This document shows, piece by piece, positions 9,693 to 52,947 of a DNA stretch of 62,123 bases. The notes below the pieces were generated by a model. That model made no database searches and was not told the DNA's origin. It worked only from the letters and a program-made list of their open reading frames with translations. Numbering within the stretch: the stretch's first letter is position 1; each line of letters starts with the position of its first letter. The stretch comes from Escherichia coli (GTDB lineage Bacteria; Pseudomonadota; Gammaproteobacteria; Enterobacterales; Enterobacteriaceae). The DNA lies in assembly GCF_003334815.1 (NCBI RefSeq), contig NZ_QOWO01000026.1; one strand, given 5' to 3'. A program made the translations under genes and the position numbers.

Positions 9693-12566
9693 ATGACACA
9701 GACGTTAAGCCAGCTTGAAAACAGCGGCGCTTTTATTGAACGCCATATCGGACCGGACGCCGCGCAACAGCAAGAAATGCTGAATGCCGTTGGTGCACAA
9801 TCGTTAAACGCGCTGACCGGCCAGATTGTGCCGAAAGATATTCAACTTGCGACACCACCGCAGGTTGGCGCACCGGCGACCGAATACGCCGCACTGGCAG
9901 AACTCAAGGCTATTGCCAGTCGCAATAAACGCTTCACGTCTTACATCGGCATGGGTTACACCGCCGTGCAGCTACCGCCGGTTATCCTGCGTAACATGCT
10001 GGAAAATCCGGGCTGGTATACCGCGTACACTCCGTATCAACCTGAAGTCTCCCAGGGCCGCCTTGAAGCACTGCTCAACTTCCAGCAGGTAACGCTGGAT
10101 TTGACTGGACTGGATATGGCCTCTGCTTCTCTTCTGGACGAGGCCACCGCTGCCGCCGAAGCAATGGCGATGGCGAAACGCGTCAGCAAACTGAAAAATG
10201 CCAACCGCTTCTTCGTGGCTTCCGATGTGCATCCGCAAACGCTGGATGTGGTCCGTACTCGTGCCGAAACCTTTGGTTTTGAAGTGATTGTCGATGACGC
10301 GCAAAAAGTGCTCGACCATCAGGACGTCTTCGGCGTGCTGTTACAGCAGGTAGGCACTACCGGTGAAATTCACGACTACACTGCGCTTATTAGCGAACTG
10401 AAATCACGCAAAATTGTGGTCAGCGTTGCCGCCGATATTATGGCGCTGGTGCTGTTAACTGCGCCGGGTAAACAGGGCGCGGATATTGTTTTTGGTTCGG
10501 CGCAACGCTTCGGCGTGCCGATGGGCTACGGTGGCCCACACGCGGCATTCTTTGCGGCGAAAGATGAATACAAACGCTCAATGCCGGGCCGTATTATCGG
10601 TGTATCGAAAGATGCAGCTGGCAATACCGCGCTGCGCATGGCGATGCAGACTCGCGAGCAACATATCCGCCGTGAGAAAGCGAACTCCAACATTTGTACT
10701 TCCCAGGTACTGCTGGCAAACATCGCCAGCCTGTATGCCGTTTATCACGGCCCGGTTGGCCTGAAACGTATCGCTAACCGCATTCACCGTCTGACCGATA
10801 TCCTGGCGGCGGGCCTGCAACAAAAAGGTCTGAAACTGCGCCATGCGCACTATTTCGACACCTTGTGTGTGGAAGTGGCCGACAAAGCGGGCGTACTGAC
10901 GCGTGCCGAAGCGGCTGAAATCAACCTGCGTAGCGATATTCTGAACGCGGTTGGGATCACCCTTGATGAAACAACCACGCGTGAAAACGTAATGCAGCTT
11001 TTCAACGTGCTGCTGGGCGATAACCACGGCCTGGACATCGACACGCTGGACAAAGACGTGGCTCACGACAGCCGCTCTATCCAGCCTGCGATGCTGCGCG
11101 ACGACGAAATCCTCACCCATCCGGTGTTTAATCGCTACCACAGCGAAACCGAAATGATGCGCTATATGCACTCGCTGGAGCGTAAAGATCTGGCGCTGAA
11201 TCAGGCGATGATCCCGCTGGGTTCCTGCACCATGAAACTGAACGCCGCCGCCGAGATGATCCCAATCACCTGGCCGGAATTTGCCGAACTGCACCCGTTC
11301 TGCCCGCCGGAGCAGGCCGAAGGTTATCAGCAGATGATTGCGCAGCTGGCTGACTGGCTGGTGAAACTGACCGGTTACGACGCCGTTTGTATGCAGCCGA
11401 ACTCTGGCGCACAGGGCGAATACGCGGGCCTGCTGGCGATTCGTCATTATCATGAAAGCCGCAACGAAGGGCATCGCGATATCTGCCTGATCCCGGCTTC
11501 TGCGCACGGAACTAACCCCGCTTCTGCACATATGGCAGGAATGCAGGTGGTGGTTGTGGCGTGTGATAAAAACGGCAACATCGATCTGACTGATCTGCGC
11601 GCGAAAGCGGAACAGGCGGGCGATAACCTCTCCTGTATCATGGTGACTTATCCTTCTACCCACGGCGTGTATGAAGAAACGATCCGTGAAGTGTGTGAAG
11701 TCGTGCATCAGTTCGGCGGTCAGGTTTACCTTGATGGCGCGAACATGAACGCCCAGGTTGGCATCACCTCGCCGGGCTTTATTGGTGCGGACGTTTCACA
11801 CCTTAACCTACATAAAACTTTCTGCATTCCGCACGGCGGTGGTGGTCCGGGTATGGGACCGATCGGCGTGAAAGCGCATTTGGCACCGTTTGTACCGGGT
11901 CATAGCGTGGTGCAAATCGAAGGCATGTTAACCCGTCAGGGCGCGGTTTCTGCGGCACCGTTCGGTAGCGCCTCTATCCTGCCAATCAGCTGGATGTACA
12001 TCCGCATGATGGGCGCAGAAGGGCTGAAAAAAGCAAGCCAGGTGGCAATCCTCAACGCCAACTATATTGCCAGCCGCCTGCAGGATGCCTTCCCGGTGCT
12101 GTATACCGGTCGCGACGGTCGCGTGGCGCACGAATGTATTCTCGATATTCGCCCGCTGAAAGAAGAAACCGGCATCAGCGAGCTGGATATTGCCAAGCGC
12201 CTGATCGACTACGGTTTCCACGCGCCGACGATGTCGTTCCCGGTGGCGGGTACGCTGATGGTTGAACCGACTGAATCTGAAAGCAAAGTGGAACTGGATC
12301 GCTTTATCGACGCGATGCTGGCTATCCGCGCAGAAATTGACCAGGTGAAAGCCGGTGTCTGGCCGCTGGAAGATAACCCGCTGGTGAACGCGCCGCACAT
12401 CCAGAGCGAACTGGTCGCCGAGTGGGCGCATCCGTACAGCCGTGAAGTTGCGGTATTCCCGGCAGGTGTGGCAGACAAATACTGGCCGACAGTGAAACGT
12501 CTGGATGATGTTTACGGCGACCGTAACCTGTTCTGCTCCTGCGTACCGATTAGCGAATACCAGTAA
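9693..12566 (+). CDS. gcvP: Glycine dehydrogenase (decarboxylating), glycine cleavage P protein
   Basis: 957-aa [25 protein letters not shown]...; PLP-dependent; operon position. Confidence 0.97.
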
Positions 12567-25918: not shown

Positions 25919-27367
25919 TTATTCTCCATGCTCATTTTTCTTCAGCTTGCGCATCAGAAGCCACATACGTACTGTCCTGACTTTTAAATCTTTATCAGAG
26001 ACGGATTCCTTCACCAGGTCAGCATGATGCTGATAGCCATTAAAGAAGACGTTCAGCACAACGGCGCTAAGGGTTGCGAGCATAATGCCGCTATGTAGCA
26101 GCGGTTGCAGTACGGCCGGTAACTTAGAAAAGAAATCGTGAGAGAGCGTCGGAGTCATGCCAACGCCGAGACTGATCGCCACAATATAGAGGTTGTAACG
26201 GTTGGTGGTGTAGTTACAGCGCGACAGAATTCGAATCCCTGTCGCCAGTACCATGCCGAACATCACTAGACCAGCGCCGCCCAGCACAAATTGCGGAATG
26301 GAGGCTACCAGCACCGCCATTTTTGGCACCATGCCAAACAGGATTAATATAATTCCCGAAGAAATACACACCCAGCGGCTATGAACGCGCGTCACGCTAA
26401 CCAGGCCAACGTTTTGAGAAAATGACGTGTGGGGGAAGCTGTTAAACGTGCCGCCTATCATTGTCCCTACGCCATCGACACGCAGCCCGCGAATAATATC
26501 GTGCGAAGAGAGTTTACGACCGACTATTTCACCCAGTGCCAGGAACATCCCCATCGACTCGATAAACACGATGATTAACACGGCAGTCATGGTCAGAATG
26601 GAAACGGGATCGAAAATCGGCATACCAAACGACATCGGCGTAACAATCGCAAACCATGAAGCATCATGTAGCCCGGATAAATTGACTTCATTCATCATCC
26701 ACGAAAGTAAAAAGCCAAATACAATCCCCAGTAATACGGCGACGTTGGACATAAATCCTTTCGCATAGCGAGTAATGAGCAAGATAAAAATTAAGACGGC
26801 AAAGGAGATACCTAAATAAACGGGATTACCATATTGCGGATTCCCTTTACCTCCGGCGGCCCAGTCAATACCCACCTGAATGATGCTAAGCCCGATAGAA
26901 GTAATAACCACACCGGTAACCAGTGGCGGGAATAAAGGCATCAAGCGACCGATAAGTGGCGCTAATAATGTGGTGATAAAACCCGCGGCGATAGTGGCAC
27001 CAAATATCCCCAGCAGGCCGATATCCGGGTTCATCCCAATGGCTATCATTGGTGTTACAGCAGCAAAGGTCACCGACATAATCACCGGCAGGCGGATCCC
27101 CATAAAGCGGCCGATACCGATACATTGCAATAATGTGACGATCCCGCAGCAAAAGAGATCCGAGCTAATGAGCATCGCAATAGCTTCTTTTGAGAGGCCC
27201 AGTCGGTCACCAATCATAAGAGGAACAGCGACTGCACCTGCGTACATGACAAGGACGTGTTGCAGACCGAGTATGATCAGCTTTCCTGGTGATAATATGC
27301 GGTCAACCTCATCAGTTGGGCGGTCTTGCCCAGAAGATGAGGGAAGTTGGGAATCTATGGCGCTCAT
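25919..27367 (-). CDS. uacT: Uric acid transporter (NCS2/NAT family)
   Basis: ORF track 525 aa; the start I recall is MSAIDSQLPSSSGQ at 27367, preceded by GGAG, giving 482 aa; polytopic membrane protein. Confidence 0.9.
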   Translation of the reverse strand: MSAIDSQLPSSSGQDRPTDEVDRILSPGKLIILGLQHVLVMYAGAVAVPLMIGDRLGLSKEAIAMLISSDLFCCGIVTLLQCIGIGRFMGIRLPVIMSVTFAAVTPMIAIGMNPDIGLLGIFGATIAAGFITTLLAPLIGRLMPLFPPLVTGVVITSIGLSIIQVGIDWAAGGKGNPQYGNPVYLGISFAVLIFILLITRYAKGFMSNVAVLLGIVFGFLLSWMMNEVNLSGLHDASWFAIVTPMSFGMPIFDPVSILTMTAVLIIVFIESMGMFLALGEIVGRKLSSHDIIRGLRVDGVGTMIGGTFNSFPHTSFSQNVGLVSVTRVHSRWVCISSGIILILFGMVPKMAVLVASIPQFVLGGAGLVMFGMVLATGIRILSRCNYTTNRYNLYIVAISLGVGMTPTLSHDFFSKLPAVLQPLLHSGIMLATLSAVVLNVFFNGYQHHADLVKESVSDKDLKVRTVRMWLLMRKLKKNEHGE

Positions 27368-27802
27368 CAGTGTTTCTCCTTTCGCCCGCCAGAGTAAAAA
27401 GCAACCGTTTACGTTAATGAAACTGTCTAAACACATGCTCGTGGAGTGCCAGTTTTTGCGAGGAAGGGGAGTTAGAGACAGGAATTGCGGAGGCAATCAC
27501 ATAATCGTGGTTAAACCACGAAAATGAGAATAGAACCTGACAATGGAATTATCTGTAATTTTCTCATATTGATATTTCATTAATCATTCTGGCATGTCGC
27601 ACTCTCGCATTTAATCGTTTTTATCTGGATAGCGCTCTTTTGATCGGCAATGTTGAAATAATGAAAGCGGCATAGATTGAGGGGCAATAATTTGAACTCA
27701 GTCGCAAAATTATAATTAAAACGGTCATGCTACCTAATATATGCCCGTTTATTGCATCGCGAAATTTGAGAAGACATAACTCATTAAATGAAAGGGATGC
27801 AA

Positions 27803-29722
27803 ATGAATAAGTTTATTGCTGCTGAAGCTGCGGAATGTATAGGCTGTCATGCTTGTGAAATTGCCTGTGCGGTGGCACACAATCAAGAAAACTGGCCGCT
27901 GAGTCACAGTGACTTTCGACCGCGTATCCACGTTGTAGGGAAAGGCCAGGCTGCGAATCCGGTGGCCTGCCATCACTGCAACAATGCCCCTTGCGTTACG
28001 GCTTGTCCGGTTAATGCTCTGACTTTCCAGTCCGATAGCGTACAACTGGACGAGCAAAAATGTATTGGTTGTAAAAGATGCGCAATCGCTTGCCCCTTTG
28101 GCGTCGTTGAGATGGTCGATACGATTGCGCAGAAATGCGACCTTTGTAACCAGCGCAGTTCCGGCACGCAAGCCTGTATTGAAGTTTGCCCAACACAGGC
28201 GTTACGACTGATGGACGATAAAGGGTTGCAGCAGATAAAGGTGGCCCGCCAGCGCAAAACGGCAGCAGGAAAAGCGTCATCAGACGCTCAGCCATCTCGC
28301 AGTGCAGCGTTGCTCCCCGTTAACTCGCGTAAAGGCGCAGATAAAATTTCAGCGAGTGAACGGAAAACCCACTTTGGCGAAATATATTGCGGGCTGGATC
28401 CACAACAAGCGACTTATGAGAGTGACCGCTGTGTTTATTGTGCCGAAAAAGCTAACTGCAACTGGCATTGCCCGCTGCATAACGCTATTCCGGATTACAT
28501 CCGTCTGGTACAGGAAGGAAAGATTATTGAAGCGGCAGAACTTTGCCACCAGACCAGTTCCTTACCAGAAATTTGCGGCAGGGTATGTCCACAGGACCGT
28601 CTTTGTGAAGGCGCATGTACTTTGAAAGATCACTCGGGCGCAGTCTCTATCGGTAATCTGGAACGCTACATCACCGATACCGCGCTGGCGATGGGCTGGC
28701 GTCCCGATGTCAGCAAAGTTGTTCCCCGTAGCGAAAAAGTGGCGGTGATTGGCGCTGGGCCTGCAGGGTTAGGGTGTGCTGATATTCTGGCGCGCGCAGG
28801 AGTTCAGGTCGATGTCTTTGATCGCCATCCAGAAATTGGCGGTATGCTGACTTTTGGCATTCCTCCTTTCAAACTCGATAAAACGGTATTAAGCCAGCGG
28901 CGAGAGATATTCACCGCAATGGGAATCGACTTTCATCTTAACTGTGAAATTGGCCGCGATATTACCTTTAGCGATTTAACTTCTGAATATGATGCAGTTT
29001 TCATCGGCGTGGGGACTTACGGGATGATGCGAGCAGATCTGCCGCATGAAGATGCGCCCGGTGTCATTCAGGCTCTACCGTTCCTGACTGCCCATACCCG
29101 CCAGCTCATGGGATTGCCGGAGTCTGAAGAGTATCCGCTGACGGACGTGGAAGGTAAGCGAGTCGTGGTATTGGGCGGTGGCGATACGACAATGGATTGT
29201 TTGCGGACTTCCATCCGCCTCAATGCCGCCAGCGTGACCTGCGCGTATCGTCGTGATGAAGTCAGTATGCCGGGCTCGCGCAAAGAGGTGGTTAATGCGC
29301 GCGAGGAAGGTGTCGAGTTTCAGTTCAATGTTCAACCGCAATATATCGCTTGTGACGAAGATGGGCGTTTAACTGCGGTGGGCCTGATTCGTACCGCCAT
29401 GGGTGAGCCGGGGCCGGATGGTCGCCGTCGTCCTCGTCCGGTAGCGGGTTCAGAGTTTGAATTGCCCGCCGATGTTCTGATTATGGCCTTTGGTTTCCAG
29501 GCGCATGCCATGCCGTGGTTGCAGGGCAGCGGAATTAAACTCGATAAATGGGGCCTGATTCAAACCGGTGACGTCGGGTATTTACCTACCCAGACGCATC
29601 TGAAAAAAGTCTTTGCTGGTGGTGATGCAGTTCATGGCGCGGATCTGGTTGTCACTGCAATGGCCGCAGGAAGGCAGGCGGCGCGCGATATGTTAACTCT
29701 GTTTGATACGAAGGCATCGTGA
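27803..29722 (+). CDS. ygfT: Fused 4Fe-4S ferredoxin / FAD-NAD(P)-binding oxidoreductase (GltD-like)
   Basis: Start at [22 protein letters not shown] gives 639 aa; multiple CxxCxxCxxxCP clusters then Rossmann motif [11 protein letters not shown]. Confidence 0.9.
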
Positions 29723-30210
29723 TGAAATCGTTAATTATCGTTAATCCGGCTGACTGTATTGGCTGCCGTACTTGTGAAGTAGCCTGTGTGGTCGCTCACC
29801 CTTCAGAACAGGAGTTGAATGCCGATGTCTTTTTACCCCGGCTGAAGGTACAGCGACTGGACAGCATCAGTGCGCCGGTGATGTGCCATCAGTGTGAAAA
29901 CGCCCCTTGTGTTGGCGCTTGCCCCGTGGGGGCGCTGACGATGGGCGAGCAGGTGGTGCAGACCAATTCTGCCCGTTGTATTGGCTGTCAGAGTTGCGTC
30001 AGTGCGTGCCCGTTTGGAATGATCACCATTCAGTCGTTGCCGGGGGATACCCGACAACAAATTGTGAAATGCGATCTCTGTGAACAGCGGGAAGAGGGGC
30101 CAGCCTGCGTTGAATCTTGCCCAACACAGGCGCTGCAGTTGCTTACTGAAAGAGAACTCAGGCGAGTCCGCCAGCAGCGTATTGTTGCCAGCGGTGAGAA
30201 TCCTCTCTGA
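29722..30210 (+). CDS. ygfS: 4Fe-4S ferredoxin-type protein
   Basis: 162 aa from ATG at 29722 (TGATG overlap with ygfT stop); four Cys clusters. Confidence 0.88.
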
Positions 30211-30245
30211 AAGAAATCTCCGCGCTGAAAGGCGCGGAGAATCTA

Positions 30246-31613
30246 TTAGATTGCCCAACCACCCGCGTAAAATGCGACCAGTGCGGCAGTAATGATCACC
30301 GTACCAATATTCAGCTTTTGCCATTCGCGTGCAAAGACGCGGCCTACGACCAGTGTCACAAAGCCCAGCATAATACCGGTAACGATATTACAAGTCAGAA
30401 CGATGAACACGGCACACACCAGGCCAGCCATAGCGTCAATAAAATCATTGAAATCCAGCTTCGAGACGTTACTTAACATCAGCAAACCTACGTACATCAG
30501 AGCGGGTGCAGTGGCGTAACCAGGGATCAAAAATGACAGCGGTGATAAAAACAGAATTAACAGGAATAACGCCCCCACTACGGTTGCGGTTAAACCTGTT
30601 TTACCCCCGGCGGCGGTTCCTGCCGCTGATTCGATATAAACCGCTGCGGGCGCTGCGCCCACCAGGCCGGAGAATATTGAACTTACTGAGTCACTGGTCA
30701 GGGCTTTGCCGCCGTTGATGATCTGGTTGTCTTTATCCAACAAATTCGCCTGACCGGCGACGGCACGGATGGTGCCAGTAGCGTCGAACACTGCGGTCAT
30801 CACCAATGCCAGTACACTCGGAAGTACAGTTGGCTGGAGTGCACCCATAATATCGAGGCTGAAAATCAGAGACTTACCATCTTCGCCAGTCAGGCTTGGC
30901 ATCGCCACCAGACCGTGGTATTTCACCGCTGGGTCAAAGATTAAGCCGATGATCGAAATTGCAATAATCACCAACAAGATCCCGCCGGGTACGCGACACT
31001 TCTCCAGGCCGAAGATGACCGCCAGCCCCAGCAAGCTCATCATCACCGGGAAGGAGGTAAACGCACCGAGCGCCACTGGCAAGCCTTCAATCGGGTTTTT
31101 GATAACCATACCCACACCGTTAGCAGCAATCAGCAGCAGAAACAGCCCGATACCGATACCTGTACCGTGAGCGATACCCATCGGCAAATTACGTAAGATC
31201 CAGGTACGCACACCGGTTACGGAAATGGCGGTGAAGATGACGCCCATCAGAAATACCGCGCCCAGTGCGACAGGAACGCTAATTTGTTGCCCGAGTACCA
31301 GACTGAATGCGGTAAACGCCGTCAAGGAAATCGCGCAACCAATCGCCATTGGCAAATTAGCCCATAATCCCATCAGCAACGAGCCGAAGCCCGCGACCAG
31401 ACAGGTGGCAACAAACACAGCTGCGGGAGGAAAACCTGCTTTGCCCAGCATTCCCGGAACGACGATAACGGAATAAACCATGGCCAGAAAGGTCGTTAAG
31501 CCAGCCAGTACTTCCTGACGAACGGTACTGCCACGAGCGGTAATTTTAAAATAATTATCCAGCGCGCCCTGTGGCTTTGGTGCGTCCGGTGTTTGTAGGA
31601 TGTCTCCAGACAT
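30246..31613 (-). CDS. ghxQ: Guanine/hypoxanthine permease (NCS2 AzgA-like)
   Basis: 455-aa polytopic membrane [48 protein letters not shown]... Confidence 0.93.
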
Positions 31614-52472: not shown

Positions 52473-52947
52473 AAAGTCCCGGTAGTGGAATGACAGGCAA
52501 AGTGGTTTATTTCACTGTGACTTGCCAAAGTGATTGGTGTTTTCACAGCTATACCTGGGACTAACAATAAGTGTGCCAGAATTATCCGCGCGGCTGCAAA
52601 AGACTAATTTGACGGATAATGTGTGGGGTTGATCACAAATTGATGCCAGCTTCTGGTTGTTTGTAAAATACGAAAACGTTTGGCTTTTTTTATCGCGTTA
52701 TTTATTTGCTGCTAAGTATCAGAAATAAGATAAAGGGGCAGGCTATCTCTCTTCAGTTTGATAAACTCACCGCCGTAATTCTCATATTGATATAGAAATG
52801 TGATATCTCTTCCATAATTTCATTAGAAAATGATAAAAATCTTATGTTTTTATCAAAGCCAATTTCGCCTGAGTTAATATCATCATGATCTGTGAACCAT
52901 CAACGTCTTCAATGATCGACTTTTAAGTAAGTCTGGAAGGTAAAGCT

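Follow-up and report, generated by a model that had tools for sequence, protein, structure and literature searches.

The ygfT (uacF)-ygfS operon belongs to the purine/urate island of Escherichia coli, and the reading that we hold with rather more confidence than doubt is that it supplies NAD(P)H from formate, with electrons passing from FdhF through YgfS and YgfT, under sigma-54/YgeV control. According to this mechanism, FdhF (formate dehydrogenase H) would oxidise formate; YgfS, as an adaptor of the HycB/HydN type, together with the matching N-terminal domain of YgfT would pass the electrons along a [4Fe-4S] chain to FAD; and the GltD-like module of YgfT would reduce NAD(P)+. The NAD(P)H would then power two reductive steps, first that of XdhD-YgfM and then that of YgfK, with the net effect that formate electrons would be diverted from H2 production to urate reduction. 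The partners of YgfT and YgfS, the direction of electron flow and the nucleotide specificity are all what we infer here.

When gut bacteria degrade urate anaerobically, this affects gout and the uric acid level of the host, and the catabolic steps of the anaerobic pathway were worked out in 2025. A net four-electron reduction is needed, and ygfT-ygfS is the obvious candidate supply line for these four reducing equivalents in E. coli. The pair itself is already known, as a described and urate-linked gene pair of E. coli K-12, and electron flow from formate dehydrogenase to YgfT is already in the literature; if our reading is true, the novelty would lie in the part played by YgfS, in the conservation of the synteny and in the enzymatic activity. 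Observed for the first time in this analysis are the adjacency of fdhF (6/9 loci), the overlapping gene junction (7/9) and a predicted canonical sigma-54-type promoter of the divergent gene (10/10). The interpretation of the pair in the sequence-only reading that preceded this work is, as a whole, partly supported.

The window (the whole stretch of DNA analysed, 62,123 nucleotides) is E. coli K-12, with 100% identity to E. coli K-12 MG1655 over positions 27503-30510, and MG1655 RefSeq features were converted into window coordinates to set the gene boundaries. The boundaries that had been read from the letters for ygfT, ygfS and uacT match these coordinates exactly, and uacT is indeed divergent from ygfT, across a spacer of 435 bp with 39% G+C:

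25919..27367, minus strand: uacT (ygfU), urate/proton symporter gene, divergent from ygfT (RefSeq and ORF list).
27803..29722, plus strand: ygfT (alias uacF) coding sequence, 639 aa plus stop (RefSeq of the 100%-identical MG1655; NF009451).
29722..30210, plus strand: ygfS coding sequence, 162 aa, predicted free-standing ferredoxin with 4 x [4Fe-4S], paralogous to the N-terminal domain of YgfT (RefSeq).

With open reading frames of 639 and 162 aa and HMM E-values down to 0, ygfT-ygfS is not a chance pattern. The ygfT start at 27803 (MNKF...) is preferred over an in-frame ATG further upstream, at 27788; an MN(K/R/H)(F/L/M) N-terminus is found in 12/12 YgfT orthologues and paralogues, and a conserved Shine-Dalgarno sequence, AAAGGGA, lies ahead of the start at 27803.

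Judged by its domains and motifs, YgfT is a six-cluster Fe-S flavoprotein in which a 4x[4Fe-4S] domain is joined to a GltD-like module expected to carry 2x[4Fe-4S], FAD and NADPH:

27803..28237, plus strand: YgfT residues 1-145, ferredoxin domain resembling HycB/HydN, with four motifs of the CxxCxxCxxxC type that hold 16 Cys.
28328..29707, plus strand: YgfT residues 176-635, GltD-like module, 8 Cys, FAD and NADPH motifs.

NCBIfam NF009451 matches residues 1-639 of 639 at the equivalog level (1505.9 bits, cut-off 1154). Pfam places Fer4_11 at 53-137, Fer4_20 at 188-298 and Pyr_redox_2 at 312-623, and the glutamate synthase small-subunit family model TIGR01318 scores 850.7 bits (cut-off 483), so that Pfam, TIGR01318 and the Cys/FAD/NADPH motifs agree on the fusion of poly-ferredoxin clusters to a GltD-like flavoprotein that had been proposed beforehand. 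The 16 Cys of residues 1-145 would suffice for 4 x [4Fe-4S] and are invariant across 13 YgfT/AegA sequences; among solved structures, the nearest to this domain are the formate hydrogenlyase subunit HycB (7z0s_B, E 1.4e-30) and HycB3/HycB4 of HDCR. In the GltD-like module, Cys 210/213/219/223 and 258/262/268/272 are placed for two [4Fe-4S] clusters, residues 317-322 form the FAD motif GAGPAG, and the NADPH motif GGGDTTMDC (458-466) is followed by YRR (482-484); its PDB relatives, with motifs aligned by residue, are GltD 6s6s_G (E 1.6e-108) and NfnI 5jca_L. All 24/24 cluster Cys, GAGPAG and YRR are conserved in the 13 sequences, while among the eight specified residues of GGGDTxMDC five are invariant, two nearly invariant and one variable. 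This conservation argues for a working pyridine-nucleotide site under selection. One point against our reading is that the YRR motif suggests NADPH, whereas the XdhD-YgfM and YgfK assays used NADH only.

The alignment of residues 176-635 with GltD 6s6s_G runs from end to end, and the two have in common two Cys clusters, GAGPAG, GGGDTxMDC and YRRD..MPGS. In glutamate synthase, NfnI and dihydropyrimidine dehydrogenase (DPD), however, the GltD-like module feeds a catalytic partner (GltB, NfnA and the DPD FMN domain, respectively), whereas YgfT has a 4-cluster ferredoxin domain instead and no fused catalytic partner. This bears on the idea that YgfT might carry out a terminal reduction on its own, with urate or some other purine intermediate as its substrate, in the manner of YgfK or dihydropyrimidine dehydrogenase, as YgfT and YgfK have Fer4_20 and Pyr_redox_2 in common and Liu et al. 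suggest "analogous reactions". The likeness is nevertheless limited to the NADPH/FAD/2x[4Fe-4S] input module, with YgfT 191-627 corresponding to DPD 59-500 and YgfT 216-632 to positions 444-837 of the YgfK model, and the remainder is unmatched (the DPD chain has 1025 aa and the YgfK model 1012 positions); moreover, XdhD and YgfK have already been credited with the reductive steps. We consider a terminal reductase highly improbable and reject it, because YgfT is without a substrate-binding catalytic domain.

The likeness to NfnI raises a second alternative, a flavin-based bifurcation or confurcation resembling NfnAB, in which YgfT-YgfS would couple NAD(P)H with a low-potential ferredoxin-like carrier and balance redox pools in urate fermentation. 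The GltD-like module is homologous to NfnI subunit alpha (5jca_L, E 1.3e-85), the review PMC8097209 raises the possibility for AegA, and the solved complexes 8oh5_C and 9bov_A fuse GltD-like modules to formate-dehydrogenase-like domains. Such coupling is still improbable in our judgement, as neither an NfnA-like second flavoprotein nor a second nucleotide site was found in or beside the operon in the loci examined, synteny offers as partners only a formate dehydrogenase and an ordinary ferredoxin, and an experimental hint is absent.

Among the closest known relatives is the E. coli paralogue AegA (NF009408, "formate-dependent uric acid utilization protein AegA"), which, like YgfT, has a HycB-like 4-cluster domain and a GltD-like module. 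On the AegA model YgfT reaches 954 bits, below its cut-off of 1003 and above the cut-off of its own model, and is therefore a distinct equivalog; AegA of Brenneria is 56% identical to YgfT. Unlike ygfT, aegA lies outside the purine island without a ygfS-like downstream partner, and it is only modestly urate-induced, whereas ygfT is strongly induced. Against our reading, AegA in two-hybrid experiments showed no interaction with FdhF and interacted with HycB, HydN and YsaA (strongly), and deletion of aegA left the dye-linked activity of FDH-H unchanged.

For YgfS, the earlier call of a ferredoxin-like protein stands: Pfam finds Fer4_11 and related families, there are 16 Cys in four motifs, the protein is 46% identical to YgfT 1-157 (E 9e-42), and the best solved relative is HycB (7z0s_B, E 8e-32). 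The HydN equivalog NF007658, with a cut-off of 260 bits, gives 137 bits for YgfS and 121 for the YgfT N-terminal domain; both fall below this cut-off, and therefore they are HydN paralogues and not HydN. Pinske grouped YgfS, YgfT and AegA as paralogues together with HydN, YsaA, HycB and HyfA, but ygfS stands in a purine context and not in a hydrogenase context. Both YgfS and YgfT 1-104 match HycB and HDCR HycB3/4, the ferredoxins that partner FDH-H, at E ~1e-30 and ~1e-28, respectively, and HycB, to which they are nearest, is where FdhF docks within formate hydrogenlyase. By this homology, the role that we propose for YgfS in an FdhF-YgfS-YgfT complex would be that of a HycB-like docking adaptor.

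The junction and the 3' end of the pair are marked by two features:

29720..29724, plus strand: TGATG junction, 1-nt overlap of the ygfT stop and the ygfS start (sequence).
30217..30240, no strand assigned: GC-rich hairpin in the gap where ygfS and ghxQ converge (terminator scan and sequence).

The junction reads ...GCATCGTGATGAAA, with the ygfT TGA at 29720-29722 and the ygfS ATG at 29722-29724, which is the 1-nt TGATG overlap claimed in the sequence-only reading. An in-frame GTG at 29719 is an alternative ygfS start; orthologues favour the ATG. An overlapping junction (GTGATGA or ATGA) recurs in 7/7 other ygfS-bearing loci, i.e., in 7/9 non-E. coli loci overall. The hairpin at 30217-30240 is probably a two-way terminator that ends the ygfT-ygfS transcript, and at the ygfT/ygfS junction the terminator scan found no hairpin comparable to it. 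By the overlap, the terminator position and the conserved junction, ygfT-ygfS is predicted to be a translationally coupled operon, and PMC12623156 also calls it an operon. The gene ygfS is absent from 2/9 orthologous loci (Atlantibacter and Arsenophonus), it is not among the members of the 13-gene YgeV iModulon list, and the literature searched yielded no phenotype for it; its absence from these loci and from the list means that ygfS is not essential to the module.

As summarised in the papers citing it, the work of Iwadate & Kato (2019) showed that formate, formate dehydrogenase H, aegA, ygfT and ygeV take part when urate is degraded anaerobically, and ygfT is reported, as far as the available accounts go, to be functionally redundant with aegA in formate-dependent urate degradation. 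The role of YgfT in this process, which the sequence-only reading had mentioned, is borne out by these secondary accounts and by the name "formate-dependent uric acid utilization protein" that RefSeq and NCBIfam NF009451 give to YgfT. The genes of the reductive (2,8-dioxopurine) urate cluster, xdhD-ygfM, ygfK, ssnA, hyuA, ygeW, ygeX, ygeY and yqeA, lie in the same island as ygfT-ygfS and have the YgeV iModulon and urate induction in common with ygfT, but the published pathway was reconstituted stepwise without YgfT/YgfS. The core urate cluster is widespread in gut anaerobes, whereas the best 120 organism-named YgfT matches are all from Enterobacterales.

The reductive steps are assigned to XdhD-YgfM (urate to 2,8-dioxopurine) and YgfK (dearomatisation); both run in vitro with NADH and without YgfT/YgfS, and each has its own entry for FAD/NAD(P)H. 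The suggestion that the pair feeds the purine-catabolic hydroxylases therefore survives only as one of two live options, since XdhD-YgfM and YgfK work with NADH alone. In that option, FdhF electrons would travel along the YgfS/YgfT clusters and enter XdhD (or YgfK) directly at its Fe-S centres, without free NAD(P)H in between, which would deliver a reductant below the NAD(P)H potential for urate dehydroxylation and leave the YgfT flavin/NADPH site as a side entry or exit only. The potential of the formate/CO2 couple lies about 100 mV below that of NAD(P)H, which counts for such a route, as does the clostridial 2,8-dioxopurine dehydrogenase, which does not use NAD(P)H and accepts low-potential viologen only. 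In addition, authors summarising Iwadate & Kato allow, in the accounts available, a flow "directly to uric acid". We nevertheless consider the direct route unlikely: NADH alone suffices as reductant for E. coli XdhD-YgfM and YgfK, both of which have FAD entry domains of their own, the NADPH/FAD motifs of YgfT are conserved (GGGDTxMDC mostly) and would be unneeded by a pure Fe-S wire, and the paralogue aegA is unlinked to the purine island. Because XdhD-YgfM and YgfK have their own NAD(P)H entry, an extra NAD(P)H consumer would be redundant, while an NAD(P)H producer, as in the formate-to-NAD(P)H reading, fits.

The gene neighbourhood was compared in nine non-E. coli ygfT loci (ten including E. 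coli for the sigma-54 scan). Linkage of ygfT-ygfS to purine genes is kept in Klebsiella, Salmonella, Mixta, Erwinia and Pantoea: in Mixta, Erwinia and Pantoea its divergent neighbour is an xdhD-like gene, and it adjoins ssnA-ygfK in Klebsiella and Salmonella, positions that speak for direct transfer into XdhD or YgfK. An FdhF-type gene adjoins ygfT in six of the nine loci, where chance would give roughly 0.2%, in three arrangements: Erwinia and Pantoea have an operon ygfT-ygfS-fdhF, Klebsiella (two species) and Salmonella have the fdhF-type gene just past uacT, and in Cedecea it is divergent from ygfT. The Cedecea trio of ygfT-ygfS and fdhF has no purine genes within 10 kb, which argues against a wire dedicated to the purine enzymes. 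The Fdh-alpha equivalog model gives 892 and 1049 bits on the FdhF-type neighbours (cut-off 666). The genomic linkage to an FDH-H gene that an FdhF-partnered formate:NAD(P)+ oxidoreductase calls for is thus observed, although in E. coli K-12 itself fdhF is unlinked to ygfT, elsewhere on the chromosome. To hypothesize further, FDH-H may have a second dedicated partner, with FdhF-YgfS-YgfT forming a soluble formate:NAD(P)+ oxidoreductase and both arms of the spacer being driven by YgeV/sigma-54; this fuller proposal is tentative, and we give it somewhat less than an even chance. If it is true, its genes form an operon in Erwinia and Pantoea and are scattered in E. coli. The fdhF synteny points to a concrete three-protein complex, and beyond the synteny nothing is added to what databases and papers hold.

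A special tie of the pair to uacT is not supported by the same comparison, as the divergent partner in other genera is an xdhD-like gene or fdhF. Co-regulation with uacT, which had been put forward as a check, was found: the YgeV iModulon (13 genes) includes both ygfT and uacT, and ygfT expression is lower in a ygeV mutant. Scanning for the sigma-70 consensus gave nothing promoter-like in the spacer, with a single match inside ygfT and fewer matches than in shuffles. No RNA family came up in an Rfam scan of 27000-30500 with E values of up to 1, and therefore the length of the spacer is not explained by a riboswitch or an sRNA. Three elements were recognised in it:

27436..27451, minus strand: predicted canonical sigma-54-type site TGGCACTCCACGAGCA, TGGCAC-N5-GAGCA, 68 nt upstream of the uacT ATG.
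27691..27706, no strand assigned: predicted CRP-like dyad TTTGA-N6-TCGCA, upstream of the ygfT promoter element.
27741..27756, plus strand: weak sigma-54-type element (-24/-12) ATGCCCGTTTATTGCA, non-canonical, with its end 46 nt ahead of the ygfT ATG.

The predicted uacT site scores 19/21, a value reached by 2/500 shuffles, has the -24 GG and -12 GC at 10-nt spacing and aligns with the K. aerogenes site; it is absent from the main table of PMC4591121. A sigma-54-type site scoring 18-20/21 stands ahead of the divergent gene in 10/10 loci, with 1-17/500 shuffles matching these scores. The element of ygfT is kept as yCGCCy-N5-TTGCA, 38-47 nt 5' of the ATG, in most other loci scanned; its TTGCA at -12 and its spacing are conserved, while the -24 part is TGCCC/CGCCT with a single G, the GG doublet not being kept. 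This element is the sigma-54 ChIP-seq site OS32 of PMC4591121, assigned there to ygfT, with low enrichment and a motif score of 4.5. In the whole window a loose sigma-54 pattern is not enriched (185 observed, 220 expected); the informative evidence for sigma-54 is the weighted score and the conservation only, not the loose pattern search. Most likely, ygfT is transcribed from a weak YgeV-activated sigma-54 promoter, opposite a canonical sigma-54-type promoter of uacT.

Two candidates in the spacer were tried as YgeV sites and rejected. The perfect palindrome CGTGGTTAAACCACG (27506-27520), considered as a shared YgeV enhancer or common upstream activating sequence (UAS), occurs only once in the window, does not recur upstream of the sigma-54 promoters of xdhA, ygeW and ygfK, and lacks conservation in seven other genera. 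The dyad TTTGA-N6-TCGCAAA as a YgeV site has 10 matches in the window where 8.6 are expected, which is not above chance. We read this dyad as CRP-like, since its window matches are not above chance and a near-perfect CRP site (n=1) lies upstream of the ygfK promoter. The purine/urate pathway is glucose-repressed, and a Crp site has been described in the ygeV-ygeW spacer. The dyad is kept in E. coli, Klebsiella and Salmonella, with TCACA in Erwinia and Pantoea.

The region 27503-30510 was 100% identical to E. coli K-12 MG1655 in megablast and, of 5426 complete E. coli genomes, 5323 gave a match, with at least 80% query cover in 5179. Gene boundaries were obtained by transferring MG1655 RefSeq features to window coordinates, and for ygfT and ygfS they are identical to those of the sequence-only reading:

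25919-27367, minus strand, uacT
27803-29722, plus strand, ygfT
29722-30210, plus strand, ygfS
30217-30240, GC-rich hairpin between the convergent ygfS and ghxQ (terminator scan and sequence)
30246-31613, minus strand, ghxQ

The junction sequence, GCATCGTGATGAAA, confirmed the TGATG overlap, where the ygfT TGA (29720-22) and the ygfS ATG (29722-24) have one base in common, and the hairpin probably closes the ygfT-ygfS operon against ghxQ. An ORF listing gives longer forms (ygfT from ATG 27788, ygfS from GTG 29719); the annotated starts are better supported, because the N-terminus MN(K/R/H)(F/L/M) is found in 12 of 12 aligned YgfT relatives, a conserved AAAGGGA ribosome-binding site lies 5' of the annotated ygfT start, and orthologous junctions read GTGATGA or ATGA. 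In E. coli W409 (NZ_CP122499.1 918629-922413) an IS1 transposase gene is listed between ygfT and ygfS under the match, and a truncated YgfT of 394 aa (99% identity) occurs in a cluster of 94 sequences; therefore, the operon is occasionally disrupted in natural isolates.

YgfT (639 aa) contains the Pfam domains Fer4_11 (53-137), Fer4_20 (188-298) and Pyr_redox_2 (312-623). By sequence it belongs fully to the YgfT equivalog family NF009451 of NCBIfam (“formate-dependent uric acid utilization protein YgfT”; 1505.9 bits, cut-off 1154), while it attains 850.7 bits against TIGR01318 (glutamate-synthase small-subunit family) and 954 bits against the NCBIfam model of its paralogue AegA, under the cut-off of 1003. 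Residues 1-129 hold 16 Cys in four cluster motifs and residues 210-272 a further 8, the FAD fold is GAGPAG at 317, and the predicted NADPH site, GGGDTTMDC at 458 followed by YRRD..MPGS, has residue-by-residue counterparts in the NADPH-dependent structures of GltD and NfnI. In 13 YgfT/AegA sequences (56-93% identical), 24 of 24 cluster Cys, the FAD-fold residues G317, A318, G319, P320 and G322, and Y482-R483-R484 are invariant, the NADPH core (G458, G459, D461, T462, M464, D465, C466) is invariant or nearly so, and the linker at about 145-190 is variable.

YgfS (162 aa) has 16 Cys in four motifs as in the N-terminal domain of YgfT, and is 46% identical to YgfT 1-157 (E 9e-42). The closest solved structure for both ferredoxin modules is HycB (7z0s_B, E about 1e-30), the FdhF-binding subunit of formate hydrogenlyase, with HycB3/HycB4 of hydrogen-dependent CO2 reductase also among the closest; YgfS is a paralogue of HydN/HycB, but does not reach the HydN model cut-off. 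The C-terminal module of YgfT is closest to GltD (E 1.6e-108), NfnI subunit alpha (5jca_L) and dihydropyrimidine dehydrogenase, and is of the same kind as GltD-like modules, except that it is joined to a HycB/HydN-type ferredoxin domain. Domains, motifs and structural relatives bear out the description of YgfT as a fusion of poly-ferredoxin clusters with a GltD-like NAD(P)H flavoprotein, and of YgfS as ferredoxin-like. The matches to all three proteins stop where the NADPH/FAD/2x[4Fe-4S] input module does. That YgfT itself is a terminal reductase is less likely, because it lacks a catalytic domain; electron bifurcation by YgfT-YgfS is also less likely, because a second flavoprotein is absent.

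The role of YgfT in formate-dependent urate degradation given in the sequence-only reading is correct and is now standard RefSeq/NCBIfam annotation; the whole description of the pair was right and is already known from databases and papers. Papers citing Iwadate & Kato 2019 summarise it as showing that anaerobic urate consumption by E. coli requires formate and involves aegA, ygfT and ygeV, and PMC8097209 gives AegA as a proposed participant in reductive urate degradation dependent on formate and formate dehydrogenase H (FDH-H, FdhF). PMC12623156 reads “Operon uacF-ygfS ... induced by uric acid”, UacF being a second name of YgfT. Strong induction of ygfT by urate was measured by Liu et al., and its expression is lowered in a ygeV mutant. 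Published data are also positive for co-expression of ygfT with uacT, both being in the 13-gene YgeV iModulon (ygfT, uacT, xdhABC, ygeWXY, hyuA, ygfK, ssnA, ygfM, xdhD). ygfS is not among these genes despite overlapping the ygfT stop codon, which could be an effect of low expression, polarity or thresholding.

The urate catabolic route has been established since 2025: XdhD-YgfM reduces urate to 2,8-dioxopurine, YgfK dearomatises the latter, these enzymes together taking four electrons per urate, and SsnA, HyuA, YgeW, YgeY and YgeX complete degradation to pyruvate and ammonia. E. coli XdhD-YgfM and YgfK were assayed with NADH and in vitro did not need YgfT/YgfS, and the ygfT-ygfS locus is an accessory part of this pathway. 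A literature search for a YgfS phenotype or assay found none.

Among the 120 best YgfT matches, every organism-named one is from Enterobacterales; identity falls from 93% to about 64% among proteins named YgfT, and those named AegA are at most 58% identical. Gene neighbourhoods were read at nine YgfT loci and at one AegA locus, with tblastn as a check. The divergent partner of ygfT is not always uacT: it is a urate-type permease gene in E. coli, Klebsiella (two species), Salmonella diarizonae, Atlantibacter and Arsenophonus, an xdhD-like hydroxylase gene in Mixta, Erwinia and Pantoea, and fdhF in Cedecea. ygfS lies 3' of ygfT with overlapping stop and start in 7/9 loci and is absent there in Atlantibacter and Arsenophonus, where tblastn found no second YgfS-like segment:

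L010 (Atlantibacter metagenome scaffold), 11944-12000, interval without ygfS
L004 (Arsenophonus), 11950-12518, interval without ygfS

The Atlantibacter ygfT and a convergent ghxQ-like gene are only 55 bp apart. An FdhF-type gene adjoins ygfT-ygfS in six of the nine loci, in three arrangements. The order ygfT-ygfS-fdhF, with fdhF of the Cys140 type, is found in Erwinia oleae and Pantoea (overlapping ygfS in Pantoea); K. aerogenes, K. michiganensis and S. diarizonae have fdhF directly past uacT, and here codon 140, within the motif CCARV*HGPS, is an in-frame TGA, which we take to be the selenocysteine position of FdhF; and in Cedecea lapagei fdhF, likewise with an in-frame TGA at position 140 (selenocysteine type), is divergent from ygfT, with no purine gene within 10 kb. 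In the compared loci these genes are:

L005, 12456-14606, FdhF-type gene beside ygfT-ygfS
L007, 12452-14602, the same
L002, 5781-7928, the same
L006, 2538-4685, the same
L008, 7293-9440, the same
L009, 5731-7878, the same

Two FdhF representatives exceed the Fdh-alpha equivalog cut-off of 666 (892 and 1049 bits). The E. coli K-12 window has no fdhF, and both ygfS and fdhF are missing from the one AegA locus. Since chance adjacency is about 0.2% per locus for a gene at one or two copies per 4-5 Mb genome, adjacency in 6/9 is independent evidence, from genomes, for the genetic link to formate dehydrogenase H.

The XdhD-like hydroxylases of Klebsiella, Mixta, Erwinia and Pantoea (about 1000-1070 aa) carry a C-terminally fused YgfM-like FAD_binding_5 domain and have a separate Fer2 subunit, in contrast to E. 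coli, whose XdhD includes the Fer2 domain and whose YgfM is a protein of its own:

L002, 1881-5596, XdhD-like hydroxylase gene
L009, 1310-4993, the same
L003, 5882-9579, the same
L005, 5950-9642, the same
L007, 5969-9655, the same

The architecture, conserved cofactor motifs, operon structure and urate/YgeV regulation are shown, and published genetics implicates ygfT/aegA, formate and FDH-H. We infer, as the likeliest mechanism, that FdhF-YgfS-YgfT would act as a formate:NAD(P)+ oxidoreductase feeding urate reduction. Formate would be oxidised by FdhF; YgfS or the equivalent N-terminal YgfT domain, or both, would dock to FdhF, HycB-like as in formate hydrogenlyase; electrons would pass along a chain of at most ten [4Fe-4S] clusters before reaching the FAD of YgfT, NAD(P)+ would be reduced there, and NAD(P)H would supply XdhD-YgfM and YgfK. 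A caveat of this model is that in two-hybrid assays AegA made no contact with FdhF, although it gave strong signals with HycB, HydN and YsaA; this makes an adaptor role of YgfS attractive.

Alternatively, ygfT-ygfS could feed the purine hydroxylases directly, bypassing free NAD(P)H, as may be argued from the clostridial enzyme, which does not accept NAD(P)H, from the potential of formate, about 100 mV more negative than that of NAD(P)H, and from the divergent xdhD-like genes in three genera. The NAD(P)H route is favoured over this, because XdhD-YgfM and YgfK each possess an FAD/NAD(P)H entry and run on NADH alone, the YgfT NADPH site is conserved, and the Cedecea trio stands without purine genes within 10 kb. 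Further caveats of the FdhF-YgfS-YgfT model are that the YgfT motif suggests NADPH, yet NADH served in the assays of the reductases, and that two lineages can dispense with ygfS. The comparative data sharpen the model and leave the overall picture unchanged; the additions are modest: fdhF recurs beside the pair, the overlapping junction is conserved, ygfS is lacking at two orthologous loci, and a divergent sigma-54 promoter pair is predicted.

The ygfT-uacT spacer (435 bp, 39% G+C) has no Rfam match, and a scan of it found no sigma-70 consensus site. Regulatory elements of the spacer and of related promoters are:

27436-27451, minus strand, predicted near-consensus sigma-54 site TGGCACTCCACGAGCA, 68 nt upstream of the uacT ATG
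27506-27520, perfect 15-bp palindrome CGTGGTTAAACCACG, upstream of this uacT site by about 60 bp
27691-27706, predicted conserved CRP-like dyad TTTGA-N6-TCGCA upstream of ygfT
27741-27756, sigma-54-type element ATGCCCGTTTATTGCA upstream of ygfT (ChIP-seq site, Bonocora et al.)
42747-42762, minus strand, published sigma-54 site of ygfK
42824-42841, minus strand, predicted near-perfect CRP site TGTGAGTTCATTCACA upstream of the ygfK sigma-54 promoter
52563-52578, minus strand, published sigma-54 site of ygeW
58484-58499, minus strand, published sigma-54 site of xdhA

The element ATGCCCGTTTATTGCA was assigned to ygfT by sigma-54 ChIP-seq (low enrichment; motif score 4.5) and is tabulated alongside the sites of xdhA, ygeW and ygfK (PMC4591121). 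It lacks the usual -24 GG, and its form yCGCCy-N5-TTGCA, 38-47 nt 5' of the ATG, is kept in most other loci scanned. PMC4591121 does not list the predicted uacT site in its main table. In 10/10 Enterobacterales loci scanned, the best sigma-54-type site facing the divergent gene (uacT, xdhD-like or fdhF) scored 18-20 of 21; scores of at least 19 occur at 7e-5 per position in the sequence searched, and only 1-17 of 500 shuffles attained the observed scores. The predicted CRP-like dyad and ygfK CRP site would fit the reported glucose repression of urate degradation. The palindrome, which extends to 16-nt arms with 81% complementarity, occurs once in the window and is not conserved at other promoters or in other genera, and a quick search found no common upstream enhancer motif for the sigma-54 purine promoters of the window. 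As the ygfK, ygeW and xdhA sites all lie inside it, the whole YgeV/sigma-54 purine regulon is accessible for study within this one stretch.
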